DNA of 63,024 bases, filler included, from Atractiella rhizophila (lineage: Eukaryota), in the NCBI GenBank assembly GCA_021432655.1. It is 14 parts of 13 records of this genome, joined end to end, with 100 filler letters (N's around TTAATTAATTAA, not from the genome) between each part and the next. Parts side by side here need not be neighbours in the genome. Positions count along the whole stretch, not along the records: positions 22,903 to 28,160 come from MU272388.1; 13 more parts are not named here. The stretch is one strand, 5' to 3'. This document shows, one piece after another, positions 3,916-52,116 of the stretch; the stretch's first letter is position 1; the number at the start of each line of letters is the position of its first letter. The notes below the pieces were generated by a model. That model was given only the letters and a program-made list of their open reading frames with translations, did not search any database and was not told the origin of the DNA. Both the position numbers and the translations under genes were made by a program.

Positions 3916-5328
3916 ATGCGACGTATCCTGCTTCTTTCCCTAGTCGTTGGGTCGCTAGCCAGCGCTCTCCCTCCATTCGACGTGCTTGGCGTGCAAAAGG
4001 ACTTCGCGCCTTCAGCAACCGCCAATCCTTCTGGTGTCCTCTCCTCTCTAGCACCCGCTGCGTCCTACTCCCCGTCTATCGCTCTCCCTTCGACGACGGC
4101 CTCTGCAAGCGCGATTATTCCATATCCTCGCAAGCCAATCCCAAAGAAGCAGCCGACTTGTAAGAGCGAGATATTCTGCCCTGGATCGCCAATTCTTCAT
4201 GCTGTTCAGCTCGCGCAAGTGTTGGTGGACTCAAAGACATTTGTGGATAAGGTGGGCTTCTGCTCCTCACTTTAAGGCAGTGGGAAGGCTGAGCTTTGTT
4301 GTCGGGTGGAATAGCCGACGAAGGGAAGCTCACAGCAGGTCCTGAACAACTGGAAAGCTCTTGTTGGAGAGGACTCTGGCGTTGGAAGTGATGGAACGTT
4401 GAATATCAGCATCACATATGCACAGCTTGAGCAATTCATCGACGACAACTTCCAGGGAGAAGGTATGTCAACACTCCCATGTTTACTATTCACCACATCT
4501 GCTGAGTGTTCACTGTTGGACAGGTCTGGACCTTCAAAGCACGACCATTCCTGATTTCAACCCTAACCCATCCTTCCTCATCCACGTCAAGGACAAATTC
4601 CTTCGCGGCTGGGGTCAGATCGTCCATGGAATCTGGAGGGATCTAGCGCGGGAGAACATTCAGAATACCAATGGAGGTTTCGAGACGACGAGCATTCCGC
4701 TCAACCGGAGCTTCATCATTGCTGGTGGACGTTTCAGAGAGGCTTATTACTGGTTCGTTTTAACGCACTTAAACCTGGTTGGCAGCCGACTGACAGAGGA
4801 ACGTAGGGATTCGAGGTGGATTTTAGAGGGATTGTTGACTTCTGAGATTTACAGCATGTCCAAAAACATGATTGAGAACTTCTTGTTTGTCTTTCATTTC
4901 ACGTCGATTGGATCGTTCTCACTCGGTTAACAGAGATGTGATGGACCAAGTCGGATTCCTGCCCAACGGGATGCGAATCTACTACTTGAACCGTTCTCAA
5001 CCTCCTCTGATGACGCAGATGGTCTACAACTATATTCAGCATACGAACGACGTTGACATCTTGAAGAGAGCCCTTCCGATCCTAGAGAAGGAGATGGCGT
5101 TCTTCCAGAACAATAGGACGATCACCTACACGAACCCGAAGTCTGGACAGGTGCACAATATCTCCCACTACAAGGTCGCCAGCACTGGTTCGTCCTTACA
5201 GCCTTCTCACCTCATTCGAGTTCACTAATCCACGGATAACAGCTCCGAGACCTGAAGGATACCTTCCTGATTGGCTCACAATCTGGGGAGACGATGTGAA
5301 GAACCCTACGTTTGACCTGTCGGAGGAA
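3916..5328 (+). CDS. Secreted GH37 alpha,alpha-trehalase, 3' truncated by contig end
   Basis: Signal peptide MRRILLLSLVVGSLASA; motifs IFCPG, DSKTFVDK|P, GGRFREAYYW|DS, GFLPNGMRIYYLNRSQPP, PRPEGY. Confidence 0.93.
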
Positions 5329-5428
5329 NNNNNNNNNNNNNNNNNNNNNNNNNNNNNNNNNNNNNNNNNNNNTTAATTAATTAANNNNNNNNNNNNNNNN
5401 NNNNNNNNNNNNNNNNNNNNNNNNNNNN
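5329..5428. other. Artificial contig spacer N44-TTAATTAATTAA-N44 (first of 13)
   Basis: Identical 100-nt spacers start at 5329, 10729, 16119, 21495, 22803, 28161, 33516, 38839, 44146, 49449, 54739, 60025 and 61397. The 12-mer has stops in all six frames. The long contigs shrink steadily from 5300 to 5186 nt, as in a size-sorted concatenation. Confidence 0.98.
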
Positions 5429-10645: not shown

Positions 10646-10828
10646 ATTGTCTTGCGAGGTGGGGATCAGCGCCAAAGCGAAGCTGAAACATGCGAGGTTC
10701 ATCGCGAGGGCGCCAAGTTCGCTACCAGNNNNNNNNNNNNNNNNNNNNNNNNNNNNNNNNNNNNNNNNNNNNTTAATTAATTAANNNNNNNNNNNNNNNN
10801 NNNNNNNNNNNNNNNNNNNNNNNNNNNN

Positions 10829-22802: not shown

Positions 22803-22902
22803 NNNNNNNNNNNNNNNNNNNNNNNNNNNNNNNNNNNNNNNNNNNNTTAATTAATTAANNNNNNNNNNNNNNNNNNNNNNNNNNNNNNNNNNNNNNNNNN
22901 NN

Positions 22903-23348
22903 TCGTCATCGGTTCTCTTAAAGGCAAGAAAGTCCAATATGCGGAATGGCACGAGTTCATCGATTACAACACGCTTTCCATTCGCGTTTGTCCACCCCCC
23001 ATGTCCGCTTTTGCGCTGTTAAGCTGACAAGGCATGAATGGATAGGTGTGCATTCCCGGAACTGGCAGAGAGAAGGCTTACTGTCCTCACATCTACGACG
23101 AGCTGGGCAGTGAATGGAACGACCCCGGAAACTACGACGTCGGCTACTTCGACAAGTGCCAGGGTTCTGATCCTCTCACTCCCGGTGTTTATGGAACGTC
23201 AACCTTCCACCAGGGTGACAAAACCACTCCTGCTGCCCACCCGACCACTAAGACGTACAGCTGCACCACGACAACTTCCATCGCTGGATCCGCTTATCCC
23301 AAGAAGAGGGAATATAGGATCGACCCCAGCCCCTTCGCTGAGGAGTAA
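22903..23348 (+). CDS. MP88-like / macrophage-activating glycoprotein family, C-terminal part
   Basis: VQYAEWHEFIDYNTLSIR|VCIPG..AYCPHIYDELGSEWNDPGNYDVGYFDKCQG..PGVYGTSTFHQGD.TTPAAHP. Confidence 0.75.
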
Positions 23349-23604
23349 TATTGTGAATTGTGGATGGACAATGGACTCGATTTAATTTCGTTCTTTACTT
23401 CAATGTTTGTTGATTGTCCAATTTCAGCCTGTGATGTAAAGTCACTTATGACGCATTACAACACAGTCGAGGAATCTGGTAAATACATAACAAGAATGTT
23501 GTTCGACATCGATGGAGTAGTGAAGAAAGGGAACCAATCATGAGGGTGCCCACTTGTATCCACGAAGGAGGAAACGAGGACAGAAGACCATATGAACTGA
23601 ACGA

Positions 23605-25260
23605 TTACAGACTCTTGTATGCATTATGAAGCACACGCATGTTTTGTCTCGCTTTGGGCGATCTATGGTAACACAAAAGCTTGGTTAGATAATAGAAAGC
23701 ATCAGCGCGCTCCCCTGGGTCTAGAATATCTAGTTCTTTGCTCTGGAAATCGTCTCGATAGAGATCTTCAAGGTCTTGCTTTCTCACCAGAGCAGCGAGG
23801 TAGTCTGCTGTGAAGATAGTCTTCACGAAGTGCATGTGTAAACCTCGAAAGGAAATTAGCCAAGCCTAAGACAATACATCGGCTTAGATTTTTTTGAGAC
23901 GAAGGTTAATCCGTCACTCACTTCGTCTTGGGGATAAAAGTCGGTACACTTGCTCAAATCGATGTATTTCTGGTCCTTTAATGGCTTCAGTGCCCTGGCG
24001 ATTAGTTCTGCATCTTGTTGAGGCAACATCTGATATGGAGTATGTTTACTCGTTTTGGTCTGTCGAGCGTCAACGGAGATACCAGAATCAGTGAGAACGT
24101 ACTTCGATTTGGATGACAGGTTGCGACTCTGCAGCCACCACCAACCGTTCCTTGCCTTGATGGTGAACGACCCTTTCCTCTGGAGTCGCATCTCTTAATG
24201 GTGCAAGGGCATCTTTAACCGTGATTTCCTTGTTGTCCTCCGTTTCAGCTTCGACTTCTGCTTCTTCCCCTTTCGGAATAACTGGGCTTGGTTGCGCCCT
24301 GGAAGAACTTTCCGGCGCAAGCAGCATGACTACGATGGCTCCATCAGTCCTGGAAACGTATAGTTGGTCTGGTTTGCCGTGACCACCCTTCCTTTGGCCC
24401 CCCATCACCCAATTAGTGGCCTGACGATGTCGACTGCAGCAGCGATTGGGCTGCATCAGCTGCTGCACCTCATAGTTAGGACAGCACCTACCTCAGTCCT
24501 AGCCAAACAAATTCTTCGGGACTTTTTGTCCCCAGCGGAAGCCTTGCCACTCTGGAAGACCTTCTCGCCCTCCTCTCCTCCCTGGTCCTCAGATTAGGCC
24601 AAGCCAGGATGTTCTTCTTCGTTGCTTCCTCTCCAGGGACGGCTCCACACGCTAATAAGGCAAGGCGGATGAACGCGTATGCGACTTCCTCATACGAAGT
24701 TTCCTGCTCTGGAACCTTGACCTGGGTGATTTTTTTGGGCGGTTTAGTAGACGAGCCAGCTCGGACTGAGGAAGTGGAGGGCACGATTGTTTTCTTGCGT
24801 TCGAGGACAAGCGGCTTTTCCAAGTCCACTTCGAGAACTGCAAAAAGAGATGTCTCTTCTCCCGCTCCTTCCGGAACAGGAGGGGGGGAACCCTGGGTGC
24901 TTGGCTCGGACTGCAGATCGGGATCCTCAGCTGGAGGTCGAGATTTGTCGTAGCGAACTGCAGGAATACGGAAACCTTTTCGCGTAGCGAAAATTAAAGC
25001 CTTTCGAAAATCTTTCAAGTATTCGCTTGATGAGTCTTCTTCCGCAATCGCGGCTGTAATCTCCTTGAACACTACATCGCACTCAGTAGCTACTTTATGC
25101 TGTCAATGATATGATACTAACAGTCTGACCCTCTAGCCGCGTCAAACTCTTCAGAATCTGGCACCATCGCAGACATATCCTGTCCACAGTATGGAATAAC
25201 GTGCAACGCTCGAAGGTTCAGCTGAGTCCAGTTACTTCCACTCCGGACGACTTTCTCGTT
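23605..25260 (-). CDS. Fungal PD-(D/E)xK restriction-endonuclease-fold protein; start codon unresolved
   Basis: Introns 25072-25121, 24463-24508, 24060-24102 and 23866-23921 join the ORFs in frame, giving RSGSNWTQLNLRALHV..VSRTDGAIVV..PVIQIE|TK..PQQDAELIA..E|AWLISFRGLHMHF..DPGERADAFYYL. The gene model is seen in the sequence; the fold is inferred from D..ExK..QxxxE spacing. Confidence 0.65.
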
Positions 25261-25331
25261 GAGGAGGACTCTGCGATCCCCTCCACGGTACGCTGTGATC
25301 CAAGCCTCCGCGCCGTCCTTGACCTCTGGCC

Positions 25332-26628
25332 ATGGCTTGTATACTGCTTCGCCAGCAGTCTCATTTGAGAGGACCGCACCTATCCAACGTGTATTGGGTT
25401 GTGCCCTTGACAGCACTACCGATACGGCGGGTGATTCCAGCGGAATTCTTTGATCATCTGTCAGGTGTGTTTCATGGCAGAAAGGGAAAATAGCTAAATC
25501 AGTAGGGGTGCAGAGATCGAGAACCAGATTATAGAAGATTTTGAACGACCCTCTTTGGAAGAGCTAGAATACGGCTATGAGGCAACACTTCCAACGGGCA
25601 CGTTGATGGCCGCCCCTTTGGTGACTCTGAAGTCCATATTGCGTTCCGAGTCGATGTCTGGTGTGCGCCTTGCGCAATCACTGATCGGCCAAATTATTTG
25701 GGGTCTCTGTAATGAGTGTGAGTTAGAAGTGGGAGAGAAAAAGTTTAAACTTCGCTTGAGGTAAGCATTATACTCAACAAACTCACCACTCACGCTTCCA
25801 GCAGCACCAAGGAACATGTGGAAAAAAGCGTTACCCTGGGAGGCAAAACGAATTGGAAGCTATCGAGTTATGCCTCAGTTATATTCCAAAATCTGACTGA
25901 ATATGAAAGTGTTCTTTTCGACAAAGAAGAACATGTGCCAGTGATTGGATTTTACTTCCAAGTAAGAGCATTTATGTCGCACGCTCCAGTTGAACTGAAT
26001 GTCCTTTAGCATCGTCGGTCCTTTGCTGAAGGGCGGCGTTGGTCGGAGGAGATGGCAGATCGTCATCATTTTCACGAAGAAAACGAAGAGAAACGCGAAC
26101 ACCAGCGCCAGCACCCTGACTCGGATGTCAGTTCGATCATATCAACACCAACACCTCCCCCCCGGCCGTCAGAATCTCTACATTTGAAGGGAAAAGATGT
26201 TCCGAGTCCTCCTTCCCATGCGCAAGAGCTTGGCATGATGTTGGGGCAGCTCACGGCGAACGGCAAAGTTTATGGAGTTGGTGATCATGAGGTATGCTTG
26301 TTCGCCGATTAGATACGGATTCACTCAACCCTGCTAAGGCATTCATCATTGGCATGAATCACACTCGGATGCACATCTCTTCGGCTTTCTTCCCTTCAGA
26401 ACCATTCTAGGAGCAATGAAGAATCCCGTCCTCCCAACAGACTCGTTGGTCTACTTTCTTCAGAGTGAGGAGTTTGACCTTGCGCTGCCAGAGGGAAGAA
26501 GGGATGGCCTAAAGGCGCTTATAGCACTATTCAAATATGTGCTTTCAGGTGAAGCGAAGATTGGGAGGATGAAGAAATTTGCGAAGGAATTGAAAGCTCG
26601 TCATCATGATAGCGAGCAGAGGCGATAA
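25332..26628 (+). CDS. Distant paralogue of the 23605-25260 gene lacking the D/ExK residues; 1-nt frameshift near 26400
   Basis: Introns 25465-25513, 25762-25801, 25962-26009 and 26292-26338 keep frame: PVIGFYFQ|HR..SHAQELGMMLGQL..E|AFIIGMNHTRMHI..QSEEFDLALPEGRRDGLKALIALFKY. One extra A in CAGAACC restores the last exon. Confidence 0.6.
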
Positions 26629-27099
26629 CATACGCAGTTATCCACTTGAGGTCTTTCGTCTTTCTCTGTGTATACTTTGCGGCGCAATTATGTTCAGTTG
26701 GATATCACAAAGGAAGGCATAACTAGAATTATAGTAACTCCAGGCAACTGAGGGGCAACTTGGAATAAAAGAGCGGGAAGGGTTGCTTAAACCTTTGGGT
26801 TTTCAACCCGTTTCAACCTAAGCTTTGCTCCTGTCTCGTTCACAGAAATCGACAAGGTTTCGCGCACCTGCACTGTATCATTCCCGCACTATTTTCTTCA
26901 AGCCATTTCCAATATTCCAGCGATCGACTGAGAAGTGCACCGTGTGCTGTCATGTTCGAGTAATAAATGTAGGTACGGCTTGAATGTTTCGTTTCTACTT
27001 TCTTCCGTTCCACCTCCTGTTAGGATGCTCGTAGCCCGTCCAATTACAGTGGTCACGAACAACAAAAATATCCTAATAAGAACACAGTTCGAAAGGTAA

Positions 27100-27850
27100 C
27101 ATCATGATGATCCTACGACACAGACAGCGACGACCCATACCTCCGTCGACAGTTTTTCCTCGCCAGCAAACACGCCATTGAAGCTGAGCGGCCCTCGTAC
27201 CTCGAATAGGGCCAATGGAAAGCGCAAAGCACGCCGTAACGCTGCAAGAGCACGCCAAGTGTCTCCCCGCCACCTCATCACTCGACAGCCTCGTTCCATT
27301 CGCAAACCAGAACTTTTCGAGAACAGGTTTTATCGCAGATATATCGGTGACGCATCAACACTGCCTGCGCTTACACGGCGCAATCTCACCTCACCGTACG
27401 GCAAAGAATTTCGAAGTAGATTTGTCAGGTTGGAGTGATGAACACGTTCTTGCTTGCCGCGTTGTCATACAGTGCGTCATCCCAAAGGAATACTTGAGGA
27501 TGTGTCAGGTAGGATAGGGCTGTGCGATTGTAGTCCCGCTGACCGGAAACTTTTCGAGCTTGAACAAGCCCTCATTCTCGACTTCGAGCAATTGTCTGCA
27601 TAAGATCTGGAGTACAGTTATGCGGAGGATATCCCTGAGGCAAACTTGATGGCCAGCCCATTACAATTACTGAGGATTCTAGCAAGGGACTCGATGATCG
27701 GTGTGGCTCAGCCCCAACATTTGATGCAAAAGGTTCTTTCGCCACTCTTGAAAACTTCTACTTTAGCGGTAAAGAACAAGATATTCAAACTTCTGTTGGA
27801 GTAAGCGTTGATACAGGCAGAATGATCAGGACTGATCCTGGCTAGCACGA
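27100..27850 (+). pseudogene. Decayed tandem copy of the 25332-26628 gene (N-half)
   Basis: ELEQALILDFEQLSA*DLEYSYAEDIPEANLMASPL..DSMIGV..KIFKLLL aligns with EIENQIIEDFERPSLEELEYGYEATLPTGTLMAAPL..ESMSGV..KKFKLRL. Same phase-2 GTAAGC donor (27801); TAA at 27601. Confidence 0.7.
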
Positions 27851-28260
27851 GCTGAAGCGGTAGCTCATATTCTTCTCATTTCGTGCTGCCTCATCTTTTT
27901 GTTTATATATTATCAGATGTACCGCTGCGTTGTGAAACAAACTGTAACAAAAACCGCTTGAAGTGAATTGAATCCAAGACTGAAAGAGATCAAAGGAGCG
28001 CTGGCCAATAAACGAATTCCCTTGTGTGCACAAATCCGACCATACCAGCCGTGAAAGCAACGATGCCGGCGATGTAAGAGCAGATAATGGCTATGACTTT
28101 GATTAACGATAGCCCTGTGTGAGAGGGGGGACAGACATTGTTTCTTCTCCGGATAGCGATNNNNNNNNNNNNNNNNNNNNNNNNNNNNNNNNNNNNNNNN
28201 NNNNTTAATTAATTAANNNNNNNNNNNNNNNNNNNNNNNNNNNNNNNNNNNNNNNNNNNN

Positions 28261-38938: not shown

Positions 38939-41277
38939 TCATCCAACTTCCTTTTCTTCTCTCCACCAATCTTCACCTCGGTGACAACATCTCCGTCTGA
39001 CATGTCTGCTGAGTCTTCCTTTATGGGAGCGGGTTTGCGAGCGAGAGGAGGGATGGAACTTTCTATTACGATAGGATCTGTGGCACTGTCAGACCTGTGA
39101 TGAAGTATAAGTCGCGCCCACAACAGAAAAAGAGAAAACTTTACTTTTGAATTATAAATACAAGCGGCATGCAGCCAACGTCCTCTTCATCGTTGATGGT
39201 AATCATCCCACCCTCCTGTACGTCTAGTTCCGTCAGCGTCTTCTCCAGAAAGTCATCGAAATCTGGGTCGTAAACAAGGTTCGTCCCAATGGTGACGTTA
39301 AACTCTCCGTGCTCCAATTCTTTCACCTTCTCCTTCACCAAGTCTACCACATTCCCCAAGGTCGCTTCGTTTGACACATTAACAGGTACATAGACGCTCC
39401 TGCAGACCGTACAAGTTCCATTCGGTGCCGTCAGTCTCTCGTTTTGCAACACTCTTCCGGGACGCTGGCCGAACCAGACGAAATGGCAGCGATCCAACTT
39501 GTGCGAGGCGTTAAGGATCTTTTTCGGCGAGGAGAGGGAGGAGGGAGGGAACTGAGTACGAGGAGTAGACCAGATTGTACGCAGCATGGACGCCGCTTGC
39601 ATGACGAGAAGACCTGCAACAGCTGCATTCGTGGTTGCGATAGCAGCTATGATGTTTCCCGCCATTTCTGCACATATATCAATTAGAATTACATCGAAAA
39701 ATGGAACAAGGAAACAAGCCTTTCACTTCCCACTTCGACTTCTGCTGAATGCCAAAGATGTGCGCTCGTAGATTTGAAGTCGCAACAACAAAGTCAAGGG
39801 TATCTTCATCGTCCTTATCAAAACTGATGGGGGAGCTAGGATCGGCTTTGAACCTCCTTGCTAGTCGCTGAAAGCTGCTCCATCCAACACCGATCAGATG
39901 TCTCCTTCCACCACTAGCTCTATCTGCCTCGATGGGAAGAGCTAGTAGTGAAGTACGACGTAGCTCAGCGGCTTCATTGAAGAACGGCGCACCTATCCGC
40001 ATAAAGCTTTACATTATCCGTCAATGACAGCACCTGCTGATCCTTTAGGTGCGACGCTGCGCTTGTAGAAGATGATGGGCCGTTCATCTCCTCTTGTGCA
40101 TCCTCAAACGCGAGAGGTTTTGGAGGTATTCGTGACTTCCACATATCTTCCATCTTCAGTAAGCGCTCAATGTCACTTTTAAACACCTAATCACTCCTCA
40201 TCAATTCACAATCTGTGAGAATGGAGCTGACAAACTTTGTTGAAAACACGCCCTGCCACAGATTCGCCGTCCTCAGACACGATCGAACGGCGTATCTGCG
40301 ACATTTCTTGCGTTTCAGCTTTCAGAGCAGCAATCTCAGATGCTACAGCGCTGATTTCAATGCTGCACTCGAACTGCAAATGAGGACGACGAACCATTCT
40401 CTCCATTTTCCAACGCCTTGTTCAACTCTTCCTCGGTTTCTACCTCGTCTTCGGGCCCAAACAGCTGACTGTCACCGCAACTTACTCTAGATCAACCAGA
40501 GATAGGGGAAACACATACGCAAGAAGGTAGCTCTTGCCCCAAACGATGCAATGAATCGGCGCAGAGGGAGTGCTGCGTATGGTGCAGACTGGATAACTTT
40601 TGGCGACAGGTTTAGGGTTGCAGTCATAGCACTCCGTTTGATCCTGTCACCAATGTAAGCTCGGTTTGAGCAGCATAAGACATCAAGTACCTTCAGAATC
40701 GGTTGGACTTGACCGGAATAACCAGCCGTGCCGCTCTCAATCAAAGGTACATTGGCTGCTAGGCACATTTTGTTCACATGCCGTCGAGCATCTATGTCGT
40801 TCCGTTGAGTGACGGTGCACATTCGAGCCGCGTCGGTTACGTACCGAGGTTGTCCAGCGCGTTGAGGACGATATCGAATTGTGCGAACCACTTCACATTG
40901 AAAGTTGTGTCCTTGATGTTTCCATGGATAGCTTCGATCTCAGCGTGTGGATTGAACTCAAGGGCTGTCTGTTTCGCGACGAGCGCTTTGGATTTTTTGA
41001 CGTGCTGCTTTTGAAAGAGGAATTGGCGATTGAGATTGCTCAAATCAATGGTATCGAGATCGATCTAGTGTTCTACCGTGCGTCTCTGCCCTGGTAAGAA
41101 GCATATGGGTTGACGCACCACCGTGACCTTCCCAAAGCCAGTCATGACCAAATTTTTTAACAATTCGCATCCAATTCCCCCAGCCCCAACACACAACACT
41201 TTAGATGACTTGAGCCTCCCATAGATTGTGGCCCCAATCACTTTCTCAGCTCCCAAAAAGCGTTTTCCTGCCGTCAT
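38939..41277 (-). CDS. UBA2: SUMO-activating enzyme E1 subunit 2, 3' truncated
   Basis: [101 protein letters not shown]. Confidence 0.96.
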
Positions 41278-41609
41278 GGTCGTTTCTTGACGGTTCAGAA
41301 ATGCGACACGTACATCTGCCAAACTCATTTTGTGTACGTTGCGTACGTTGCGAAGCTTTGAATGCACTTTTTGCTCTGACTTTTTGCTGCAATGAACAGA
41401 CTCAACGAGCCTTCCTCCTGTGAGGCTGCCCTCTAACAATGTAATATGAACATCAAACTCAAGCATAAACGCAATGCAACCTCAAAGTTAAACGATTCTG
41501 CGTGGTAAGGAGGGCAATTTTATCAAAACATTGCGAGTATTTGATATTTAAGGTTTCCGCTTCCAGAAAAGGAAGTGCTGCGGGCACCAACGAAGCAGTG
41601 AGAACCTTC

Positions 41610-49548: not shown

Positions 49549-52116
49549 CAACGAACTTCAGCATCCTCCATGGTAGCTACACCAGCCTCATCTTCGGCCT
49601 CAAACTCGGGGTGACTTCTTGTATGAGAACCGACAACAAACTGGGCTAATCTCTCATCAGCGGCTGGGTCGACTGTGTCTCTGACGACGCAAAGAACATC
49701 AAAACGCGAAAGGATAGGTTCTGTAAGCTCGACGTTCTGCGAGAATGGTATAGCAGGGTTGTATCGCCCTCGTATCGGATTGGCAGCTGCTACGACGGCG
49801 CATCGAGCTTGCAGAGAAGTGACGATTCCGGCCTTTGAAATAGAAATAGACTGTTGCTCCATGGCTTCATGGATTGACGTTCTTCGCCACATTTCAGTTC
49901 AGATAGCGCACAAGGCGTAAACGTACCTATCCGCATCGTTCATCTTATCGAACTCATCGATGAGGCAAACACCCCGATCAGCTAACACGAGAGCACCACC
50001 TTCCAACGTCCACTCCCTCGTCACCGGATCCTTCCTCACGCTCGCCGTCAAACCGACAGCACTCGCTCCTTGACCTGTAGCGAAAACGGCACGCATAGCA
50101 GTCTTTTCCGTAAACTTCAAGAACTGAGACTTCGCGGTCCCGGGATCCCCAAGAAGAAGAACATTAATATCTCCCCTAATTCTATGTTTACGGTTAATGT
50201 CCTTCGACACACCACCGAATAGTGAGAGAGCGATAGCAGTTTTGATGTCTTCGTGACCATAGATACTAGGAGCAATGCTCTTGATGATCCTCTTCTGAAT
50301 ACGCTCATCTTTGGCTAGCTGGCGAATTTGGCGTTCATCCTCTTCGGTGAGACGGAAGGATGCAAAAAGATCAGTCTTCTTATTGATGTGATTGGCTTCG
50401 AGAACAGTGGAGAAGACAGGGAAACCATTCTTGATATTCAAGGAGGAGTCGAAGAGGTTTCGGTAGATGCCAGTGATCTCGACTTCCTCTCCTGGTTTTG
50501 CAGTATCGATCAAATCCCAGAGCAAGAAGACCTCGCGATGTCGAGGGAGACGACCCGGAGGGACCGTGCCTGGGGACTCTTGTAAGGTCATCTTCTGAAA
50601 GTTTCGGTAGATCGTCTGCGCACACTGTCATTCTTGATCATAACAAGAGAAGTGGAGCAGATACCTGTTCGGAATTGACAGTAAATGGGCCCTTGCCTCC
50701 ACAGGACTGACAAAACTTGATCTTGATCTCCTCCACCCCATCCTGATAGAAAGGACCAAGGGTTTCGCCGCACTTGCCGCAATCAAACTTCACGTATTTG
50801 AGCTGAGGGAAGACACCCGTTCTTCTCGTCACTACGCCAGCAACTCGAACAAGGGCATCTAGGTGGACCTGCCTGAGATCTCTAAGGGTATACGAAGTAG
50901 GAAGCTCGGTAATCCTAACGTGCACCTCCGAATGGATGCGCTCATAAGATGGATAGTAAAGGAGAATTGCGTCTAGTGCCACTTCGTCGAATAATGGCAA
51001 GATCGAAGAAGGAGCGTTGGAAAGAAAATATGACAGGATAGGTTTAGTATCCATCAAGTGCGTAAAAGAGACTTCCAAGCTTTCGGAATTGGCTGTTATC
51101 CCGAAGTTAAGTCAACTCGCCTTTGGAGGGAGAGGGCTCACCTTCTCCTAAAGCTAAGATTCTTTGACCGTATACTGATTTACCAGCTTCATCGAGATAA
51201 GTCTGCAGAAAGTGCTTGAACTCCTTTTGAATCGTCCTAGCGACTACAGGTGTCTCAACCCATTCTCGCAATGAATTAGCCTTGATATCCGCCAGCTGTT
51301 CCACCGGCAGCTCCTGTTTTGTTCAGAGTGTCAGGCTGGCGCTGACCATTCCCCGACGGTAAGAGACACTGACATCTTCCCCTCCAACCTCGTCCATAGT
51401 CTCTGGGGCTTCGTCGTATCCCCGTCTCCTCCTCCTTCTCGTGAACAGCTCCTCCTCCTCTCCATCCGCCGCATCATCGTCACTCATCAGAAACGCTGGA
51501 GCGCGATTTCTTCGCCTCCGGCCAGCCGCGCTGCCTTCCCGCACATATCTCCCCTCCCTGCGATCTCGACGGTCCATCTTAGCATCCGCCAAAGCTCGCA
51601 TTGCTGGATCGAGAGCATCGAGGTCCGACGCGTCATCTATATTATCTTTCTCGTACGTGTCCAGACGACGGTTTGCAACATAATCGCTGTGTTGGGGGAC
51701 ATGTCAGTTTTTGGTCTTTGCTTGGTTTTTCTGAAGTGTCAATAGGGGTAAATCTCAAGTGCAGCAGTAGAGGTTGTAGTGACGGGCAAATGAACATCTT
51801 CTCAAACCCTCCCACGTTGCTCGAAGGGAAGAAAGAGAACGTACTCCATCATCTGGTCACCAAACAGATCTTCTCCTTCACCTTCGCTTCCATCGCTTAC
51901 AGCACCCTCATCACCTGTTATGACGCCATCACTCTGTACTTGCTCATCCTCAGAGCGCATAGAAGGAGGCGGAGAAGACGGTGGAAGGCCAGAGCTGGAC
52001 GGAAGTTGGTCCTCTGGCTCTTCTTCAGATGAGGAGTCCGGTCGCCGCCTTTTTCCTGTACTTAATCCAGCCAAAGGGTGAGTAGGCGATCTCCTGGCGC
52101 GTGGAGAGGTGGCCAT
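49549..52116 (-). CDS. MCM2: DNA replication licensing factor MCM2, 3' truncated
   Basis: Acidic N-terminus, [65 protein letters not shown]. Confidence 0.98.

Follow-up and report, generated by a model that had tools for sequence, protein, structure and literature searches.

We analyzed a locus of the root fungus Atractiella rhizophila, a basidiomycete of the subphylum Pucciniomycotina, at which two spliced genes, termed A (minus strand) and B (plus strand), point away from each other on one contig (positions 22903-28160 of a stretch of 63,024 nucleotides (nt) from assembly GCA_021432655.1, hereafter the window). An earlier description made from the DNA letters, hereafter the sequence-only reading, was right about this divergent pair, and it had taken A for a nuclease-like gene, B for its catalytically dead paralogue, and the two together for a candidate toxin/antidote or allorecognition module. 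The explanation that we favor, which we consider probable by a modest measure, is that a cluster of a two-branch gene family, found by sequence searches in A. rhizophila only, has been rearranged here and has partly decayed, and that the locus holds no working toxin-antidote pair. The claim that made the locus interesting, namely a working active/dead pair, fails here: the local B is a pseudogene, just 18 bp separate the homology of one gene from that of the other, and in their best region they share only 21-25% identity. Nothing at this locus argues directly for the toxin/antidote reading.

Decay of Gene B and Fragment C

Read-derived contigs were used throughout, of which X1 and X2 are DNA, X3 is RNA and X5 is a root metatranscriptome; X4 and X6-X17, which had small word shares, were left out. 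Gene B was compared with P0005 (KAH8917301.1), an intact protein of 404 amino acids (aa) that was retrieved with the first large exon of B, and the two were 77% identical (251 of 327 aligned residues). As examined by tblastn, the homology of B begins at residue 60 of P0005, and residues 1-59 have no counterpart upstream. In addition, a 1-nt deletion was found near 26401-26403, in a codon that is His in P0005. It is followed by a premature TAG at 26408-26410, and the old frame ends with the TAA at 26626-26628. Because of this deletion, the segments AFIIGMNHTRMHI and QSEEFDL of B are in different frames. When introns that might bypass the frameshift were sought by eye, no GT..AG pair restored the frame without removing a conserved strand. 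The deletion is real in the reads and is not a consensus error, as a contig from the DNA reads of X1 covers 24143-26478 without a single difference or gap. Another copy of the 3' part of B in the genome (9 differences in 878 nt) was likewise gap-free, indicating that the deletion is older than that duplication. With 59 codons lost from its 5' end, a 1-nt deletion and a premature stop, gene B at this locus is a pseudogene. Note that the DNA and the RNA data each contain a contig that ends in the P0005-type C-terminus; in X3 its loose end is at 26604.

The label of a catalytically dead paralogue therefore applies to this copy only in part: B is paralogous and has no D..ExK motif, but the copy present here is 5'-truncated and frameshifted. 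With B in this state and A without a start codon of its own, the locus does not hold two intact genes expressed side by side.

Downstream of B, fragment C carries in-frame stops (TGATGA at 27436-27441 and TAA at 27601-27603). It is transcribed and spliced, with a 46-nt intron at 27472-27517 that an X3 contig crosses with 0 differences, and the spliced frame is closed by a stop. Fragment C is a second dead fragment. The sequence-only reading had overlooked this fragment (27265-27792), together with the 1-nt deletion and the 59 lost codons of B and a third, phase-2 intron.

Structure, Splicing and Start of Gene A

Joining the exons of gene A, including the first exon of the database model, reproduced the protein P0001 letter for letter, and P0001 was a 100% identity match for the last exon of A. 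The three introns toward the 3' end (58, 43 and 56 nt) are confirmed by RNA contigs. Specifically, an exact X3 contig (0 differences in 634 nt, depth 4.3) skips the 58-nt intron, and an X5 contig with 4 differences over 317 nt skips the 43-nt intron. The 56-nt intron is missing from an X3 contig of 739 nt that stems from a close gene A paralogue (29 differences in 262 nt and 6 in 136 nt; depth 605). The same paralogue contig also skips the position of the 43-nt intron, with 3 other letters there. This intron splits IQIE|TK, in that E400 closes one exon and T401-K402 open the next, and the proposal that the ExK motif appears solely after splicing was borne out by both the X5 contig and the X3 paralogue transcript. 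Gene A is a spliced, weakly transcribed gene, with a depth of ~4 in X3.

The 5' end of the database model is less secure. Its first exon is reached through a 407-nt intron, which runs antisense through gene B, and the exon itself lies antisense inside the second intron and third exon of B. The other introns of this contig are 40-60 nt long, and within the part of A that shows homology the first in-frame ATG is that of M79. Because the 407-nt intron is atypical and no in-frame ATG lies near the homology start, the first exon is, as judged from the sequence, probably an annotation device supplying an ATG. No X3 RNA contig covers 24839-26422, hence none lies on the first exon of A or on exons 1-3 of B, and a missing RNA contig is not evidence of silence. 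An alternative 40-nt 5' intron of A with a GTCAGA donor was dropped; the 50-nt intron with the GTTAGT donor is the one that reproduces P0001.

Paralogy of the A and B Branches

By sequence comparison, A and B are true, distant paralogues, and the two types are homologous over their whole length. The last exons gave a Smith-Waterman score of 60 (from EAWLISF.. / EAFIIGM.. to QSKELD / QSEEFD), a value that one shuffle in 300 attained against full A and none in 300 against the C-terminal half of A. A hidden Markov model (HMM) of the A family found spliced B at E 9e-7 among 2005 sequences, and an HMM built without A found P0005 at E 2.5e-7 and B at E 7.5e-6, so that the last ~110 residues of B match the A family with or without A in the profile. 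Aligning P0005 with the A family by hhalign gave a probability of 88% and E 3e-6 over 111 columns, including the helix with the conserved Q (Q helix). BLASTP of P0005 against the A-type protein P0003 matched the C-terminal 108 residues at E 3e-4, with a second collinear match in the N-terminal region at E 0.004.

Intron positions were compared as well. The phase-0 intron ahead of A(W/F)(L/I)I lies at the identical aligned residue and phase in A and B, and a phase-2 intron in a Ser codon is near-equivalent, lying 11 residues (A) or 13 residues (B) ahead of the ..GG.. motif. Of the two equivalent phase-0 introns that the sequence-only reading had listed, one is therefore at an identical aligned position, but the second is offset by two codons in that reading's own alignment. 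Both hhalign and MAFFT favor placing LHLKGK of B on IETK of A, and the 43-nt and 48-nt introns are then non-equivalent; hmmalign and the block scan were undecided between PVIQIE / PVIGFYFQ on the one hand and IETK / LHLK or HLKGK on the other.

Within the region that aligns best, the identity of B is 24% with A, 21-25% with the remaining A-type proteins and 89% with P0005. B is no closer to A than to other A-type proteins, indicating that the A/B split is old and that the adjacency seen here is no recent tandem duplication; for the same reason, A and B are not a recent duplicate kept together by function. The B type shares with the A type the N-terminal region, the Q helix and the C-terminal subdomain, and it has no intact D..ExK in the collinear region under every alignment tried. 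Under the alignment of the sequence-only reading, B would carry Y or A in place of D, Y or Q in place of E, and Q or R in place of K; under the alternative one, it would carry E for D and H or K for E, with K kept. We infer from these comparisons that the B type is a non-catalytic paralogue. A side observation concerns 25443-25470, where ..FFDHLS.. of B on the plus strand shares bases with ..HLTDDQ.. of a minus-strand frame that is open upstream of A. (Y)FDHLTE occurs in both P0003 and P0005 at non-collinear places, and the likeness around 25443-25470 is probably coincidence.

Junction, Copies and Flanks

The A-type and B-type homologies start on opposite strands with 18 bp between them (Table 1). 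Residue 12 of P0001 was placed opposite residue 5 of P0005 by hhalign, suggesting that A lost little beyond its start codon, whereas B lost 59 codons. The 18-bp interval is likely a rearrangement junction and leaves no space for a bidirectional promoter.

Other copies of this DNA were visible in the read-derived contigs. The left and right flanks are present at ~2-3x the depth of the A/B core, with variant copies. In contigs at ~3x local depth, position 26600 is followed by 7 other letters and then by 27849 (depth 352.7 in X1, 157.3 in X2 and 12.2 in X3). The 1248-bp segment that holds fragment C has either been inserted at this locus or been lost from the other copies. The close A paralogue, compared over 23331-24056 on the minus strand, has 89-96% nucleotide identity to A and the same intron sites, reaches an X3 depth of 605 versus ~4 for A, and has the downstream flank of A too. 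Protein searches gave no protein matching this highly expressed paralogue, which may be unannotated.

The A-Type Family and Its Putative Fold

A phmmer search of P0001 against 1,835,955,588 cluster representatives gave 4 proteins at E<=0.001, all of them hypothetical proteins of A. rhizophila: P0001 (532 aa), P0002 (241 aa, 55% identity), P0003 (610 aa) and P0004 (279 aa). Word-index searches gave no further member (1/30, 1/8000 and 1/144 candidates found). In these sequence searches the A/B family is found solely in A. rhizophila. No description of it was found in the A. rhizophila genome literature, at the level of titles and abstracts, or in the literature on PDDEXK_12, DUF7924 and FunK1/nuclease/Spok. 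By its sequence, the family is a previously undescribed orphan. It probably belongs to a very large known superfamily, and a motif-less branch such as it has is an outcome common in evolution.

All four A-type proteins share D320, G321, E400, K402, Q414, A417, E418, G454 and H458 (P0001 numbering) in the family alignment, and they end directly after the nuclease-like domain. Each has a conserved acidic residue at a strand start and (D/E)xK in the next core strand, as in PD-(D/E)xK proteins; in P0004, which is compact, these residues are spaced as D118, 26 residues, E144-x-K146, 12 residues, Q158. In the low-confidence AlphaFold2 (AF2) model of P0001, DSSP assigned strands at 312-317, 322-328 and 384-395 and a helix at 408-427. 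Two such low-confidence models agree on the succession of elements: a first helix is followed by a strand hairpin whose turn carries D, then by a long strand leading to ExK, the Q helix and a further hairpin. This order is that of the PD-(D/E)xK core, so that it would fit a restriction-endonuclease-like core. We infer that the A type is a metal-dependent nuclease of the restriction-endonuclease-like fold, in which D, E and K would be catalytic.

The ESM Atlas was queried with P0004 and P0005, for which its own models had predicted template modelling (pTM) scores of 0.65 and 0.69, respectively. The nearest clusters were unnamed fungal and mollusc proteins (0.95-0.96). Named neighbors of both queries were the HSDR_N, PDDEXK_12, DUF7924, mL37 (mitoribosomal) and Pkinase_fungal clusters, with feature scores of 0.76-0.79. 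Clusters of the restriction-endonuclease type made up 2 of the 3 nearest named feature neighbors in both queries, and 3 of 9 structure rows for P0004 and 2 of 9 for P0005. The template modelling (TM) score normalized by cluster row reached 0.72-0.75 for HSDR_N clusters. By the tool's own calibration, this neighborhood is a set of leads. Weak library matches to DBC1, LPD7, DUF1684, Ribosomal_60s, ParA and a gas vesicle protein were all far under the cut-offs and were set aside.

Features of the Locus and Contents of the Window

Coordinates of the features discussed above are collected in Table 1.

Table 1. Features of the A/B locus, in positions of the window.
Feature	Position	Strand	Remarks
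Gene A, part with homology and RNA support	25379-23605	-	P0001 = KAH8914330.1, 532 aa, hypothetical protein, A. rhizophila
Gene A exons	25379-25122, 25071-24492, 24433-24103, 24059-23922, 23865-23608; stop 23605-23607	-	Exon joining, tblastn
Gene A introns	25072-25121, 24434-24491, 24060-24102, 23866-23921	-	50 nt; 58 nt (phase 2, in Ser codon); 43 nt (phase 0); 56 nt (phase 0)
Gene A exon with D320-G321 turn	24103-24433	-	Turn in YVSRTDGAIVVM; ~50-residue acidic insertion; strand ending in E400
Database first exon of gene A	25787-25817	-	MFLGAAGSVSG, 11 codons; reached via 407-nt intron 25380-25786
Interval between homology starts of A type (25379, -) and B type (25398, +)	25380-25397		18 bp; tblastn of P0001, P0003, P0005
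Gene B, P0005-type copy	25398-26628	+	Exons 25398-25464, 25514-25760, 25802-25961, 26010-26291, 26339-26628; tblastn with P0005
Gene B introns		+	49 nt; 41 nt (phase 2, in Ser codon); 48 nt (phase 0); 47 nt (phase 0)
Segment holding fragment C, absent from other genomic copies	26601-27848		1248 bp; read-derived contigs
Fragment C	27265-27792	+	Matches P0005-type residues 2-161, 33% identity; tblastn

The two ends of the contig carry other genes. At 22903-23348 on the plus strand lies the 3' part of an unrelated gene (..YDELGSEWNDPGNYDVGYFDKCQG.., with a Thr/Pro-rich tail) without a Pfam match. Its summed X3 RNA-contig depth is ~45,000, its 60-nt GT..AG intron (22986-23045) is bridged in X3 and X5, and its DNA depth is ~2-3x. 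At 27842-28160 on the minus strand, open frames resemble the hydrophobic C-terminal region of a membrane protein; a 56-aa piece gave no match in Pfam, and this flank has ~3x DNA depth.

The window consists of 14 pieces of 1.2-5.3 kb joined via N44-TTAATTAATTAA-N44 spacers (at 5329-5428, 10729-10828, 22803-22902, 28161-28260 and 9 other places), and linkage across spacers cannot be assumed. The pieces are roughly ordered by falling size (5328 ... 5186 nt), plus three of 1.2-1.5 kb. For a domain scan, 41 of the 59 open reading frames (ORFs) of >=130 aa and 2 shorter ones beside the locus were used, and overlapping ORFs and those of gene A were left out. Housekeeping-type domains were found in 10 of these 43 ORFs (trehalase, patatin, ThiF/UBA, MCM, MSC and sugar transporter), and none of the 43 had a transposase, integrase or reverse-transcriptase domain. 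Other pieces hold spliced housekeeping genes (49902-51111, -; 39144-41481, -; 4403-4927, +), with MCM helicase, ThiF/ubiquitin-activating enzyme, trehalase, Man1/Src1 C-terminal domain and sugar transporter among them. Because such genes are present, the pieces are not merely repeats.

Discussion

In the explanation that we favor, the family has two old branches. The A type, to which P0001-P0004 and the highly expressed close paralogue belong, keeps D-G ... E-x-K ... Q-x-x-A-E in the order helix, strand hairpin, strand, helix, strand, a pattern that we take to form a PD-(D/E)xK domain binding Mg2+ and cutting nucleic acid; the B type, comprising P0005, gene B, near-identical copies and fragment C, is without D..ExK. 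At this locus, A has lost its own start codon at the junction, B is a pseudogene and C a dead fragment, and the head-to-head layout would stem from rearrangement inside segmentally duplicated DNA rather than from a co-regulated two-gene module. At least one intact B-type gene (P0005) and one well-expressed A-type gene reside elsewhere in the genome. Gene structures, splicing, paralogy, defects and the presence of several copies are directly shown by the data, and the fold, the catalytic role of D, E and K and the non-catalytic nature of the B type are deduced.

Several observations weigh against this explanation or parts of it. X1 and X2 are possibly the reads behind the assembly itself, in which case they represent no independent strain. 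The alignable C-halves described by the sequence-only reading held for the last exon and in the HMM searches, but the D and ExK strands gave no above-chance alignment between A and B or P0005; the segments that had been paired (VMGG..VSRTDGAIV / TLGG..LSSYASVIF and PVIQIE / PVIGFYFQ) were neither individually above chance nor top-ranked in the block scan. The putative dead site of B is read from the absence of the motif together with collinearity. As for the fold, the invariant D..ExK..Q and a fitting strand/helix order in A stand, but no Pfam, PDB-sequence or fold search establishes it: hmmscan against Pfam, NCBIfam and PADLOC and phmmer/hmmsearch against PDB sequences gave no relevant family match, the mean predicted local distance difference test (pLDDT) values of the AF2 models were 35 and 36, fold searches with the low-confidence AF2 model returned noise, and in the ESM Atlas the scores of named clusters were below the tool's 0.9 bar, with TM by query of 0.37-0.48. 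Taking the motif, the strand order and the Atlas neighbors together, we regard the PD-(D/E)xK fold of the A type as plausible and fairly probable rather than demonstrated. Finally, P0002 (A type) and P0005 (B type) are each on a 42,137-bp contig, and their accessions are 7 apart, so that linkage of the two types may recur and be meaningful.

This last point also speaks for a two-component selfish or conflict module. In it, A-type proteins would be nucleases with toxic action, which inactive B-type paralogues would neutralize by binding or in another way, the two spreading as linked pairs; intact P0005 would protect in trans, so that a broken B beside A could be tolerated. A- and B-type genes adjoin here as well, the family is multi-copy, rearranged and species-restricted, and a precedent for killing exists in SPOK3: according to PMC6660238, its PD-(D/E)XK domain, whose best HHpred match is HsdR, is needed for killing, and the motif mutant K240A loses it. 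However, at this locus B is a pseudogene and A lacks a start codon of its own, the homology blocks are separated by 18 bp alone, A and B have diverged as far as any other two members of the family, and the close A paralogue is highly expressed (depth 605), which speaks against strong toxicity of the A type. We therefore consider such a module quite improbable. A more specific version, a split Spok-like selfish system with A-type DNA-cutting killers and B-type antidotes, copied as linked units that decay after fixation, appears to us slightly more doubtful still; this locus would then be a fossil unit and the contig of P0002 and P0005 a younger one. If this is true, basidiomycetes would gain their first nuclease-based toxin/antidote pair of the kind. 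By analogy with known heteromeric nucleases, the B type could instead be a non-catalytic structural partner of the A-type nuclease in an obligate heteromer, a role that we judge unlikely and about as likely as the toxin/antidote reading. It would agree with the shared N- and C-terminal regions of the two types, which differ at the motif, and with the retention of at least one intact B-type gene (P0005), whose type of 3' end is carried by RNA contigs; yet the copy numbers and decay look like those of a dispensable, fast-turnover family, unlike a conserved repair enzyme, and phmmer places the family by sequence in one species only.

The family may also be real and have no nuclease activity; D..ExK..Q would then mark a lineage-specific fold, with a role in structure or binding, and A and B would differ through ordinary divergence. 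We give this possibility more credence than the module or the heteromer, although it is still rather unlikely. Profile and fold searches link the family to no PD-(D/E)xK family, its best ESM Atlas neighbors are unnamed proteins of fungi and molluscs, and invariance is a weak statistic with four sequences. On the other hand, the type, order and spacing of the residues (D-26-ExK-12-Q in P0004) and the predicted order of strands and helices match the superfamily, and restriction-endonuclease-type clusters were prominent among the nearest named neighbors in two separate Atlas queries. That the family is cargo of, a remnant of, or the nuclease of a repeated mobile element is unlikely in our view. 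The flanks and the 3' part of B do occur at ~2-3x depth with variants, the 1248-bp segment is present or absent, and the A paralogue shares the downstream flank; nevertheless, blastn of this contig against the other contigs of the window gave no match and no second internal match, the scanned ORFs lacked the domains of such elements, and the duplicated unit holds the unrelated, very highly expressed gene at 22903-23348, which plain segmental duplication fits better.

If the fold is right, a new species-restricted, restriction-endonuclease-like family in an early-diverging basidiomycete would be at hand, with motif-bearing and motif-less branches and rapid duplication and decay. Fungal conflict systems such as spore killers and allorecognition have earlier been found among fast-turnover nuclease families, and the A/B family is a reasonable place to look for them, while this locus itself is a poor candidate for a working module. 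Two practical lessons follow from the analysis: where a 'dead paralogue' sits beside an active gene, the first question should be whether it is a pseudogene, and annotated start exons behind atypically long introns (407 nt versus 40-60 nt) deserve suspicion.

Comparison with Known Systems

XPF-ERCC1 and Mus81-Eme1 are nucleases composed of an active subunit and a catalytically inactive paralogue, conserved across eukaryotes and encoded by unlinked genes. The A/B family resembles them in combining, within one genome, paralogues with and without the motif, but it is species-restricted, multi-copy and decaying. Crinkler-type restriction endonuclease (REase) effector domains, which the sequence-only reading had named, resemble the A/B family as lineage-specific expansions of REase-like domains in eukaryotes. 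Neither a Crinkler header domain nor a secretion signal came to light, although no search aimed at them was made.

The N-terminal nuclease of HsdR (HSDR_N, PF04313/PF13588) and domain 2 of SPOK share with the A type D ... ExK and, after it, a helix that carries a conserved Q. However, the A-type helix reads Q-x-x-A-E and not QxxxY, and neither hmmscan against Pfam (E up to 10, covering PF04313 and PF13588) nor hmmsearch against PDB gave a match to HSDR_N at the sequence level. Spok is a single protein that combines the PD-(D/E)XK domain with a Cys cluster and a C-terminal kinase domain, as stated in PMC6660238, which also names K240 as the motif residue. P0001-P0005 have no kinase domain in Pfam, no Cys cluster and no coiled coil, which is not the domain make-up of a Spok protein.

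PDDEXK_12 (PF20516) and DUF7924 (PF25545) comprise fungal proteins of similar size and are Atlas neighbors of P0004 and P0005, but they gave no hmmscan match at E<=10, and their Atlas scores are under the naming bar. Nothing was found in print on PDDEXK_12. According to PMC13412767, DUF7924 ranks with the families whose copy number varies most in the Neurospora crassa pangenome, and in this respect it resembles the A/B family, which is multi-copy in A. rhizophila.

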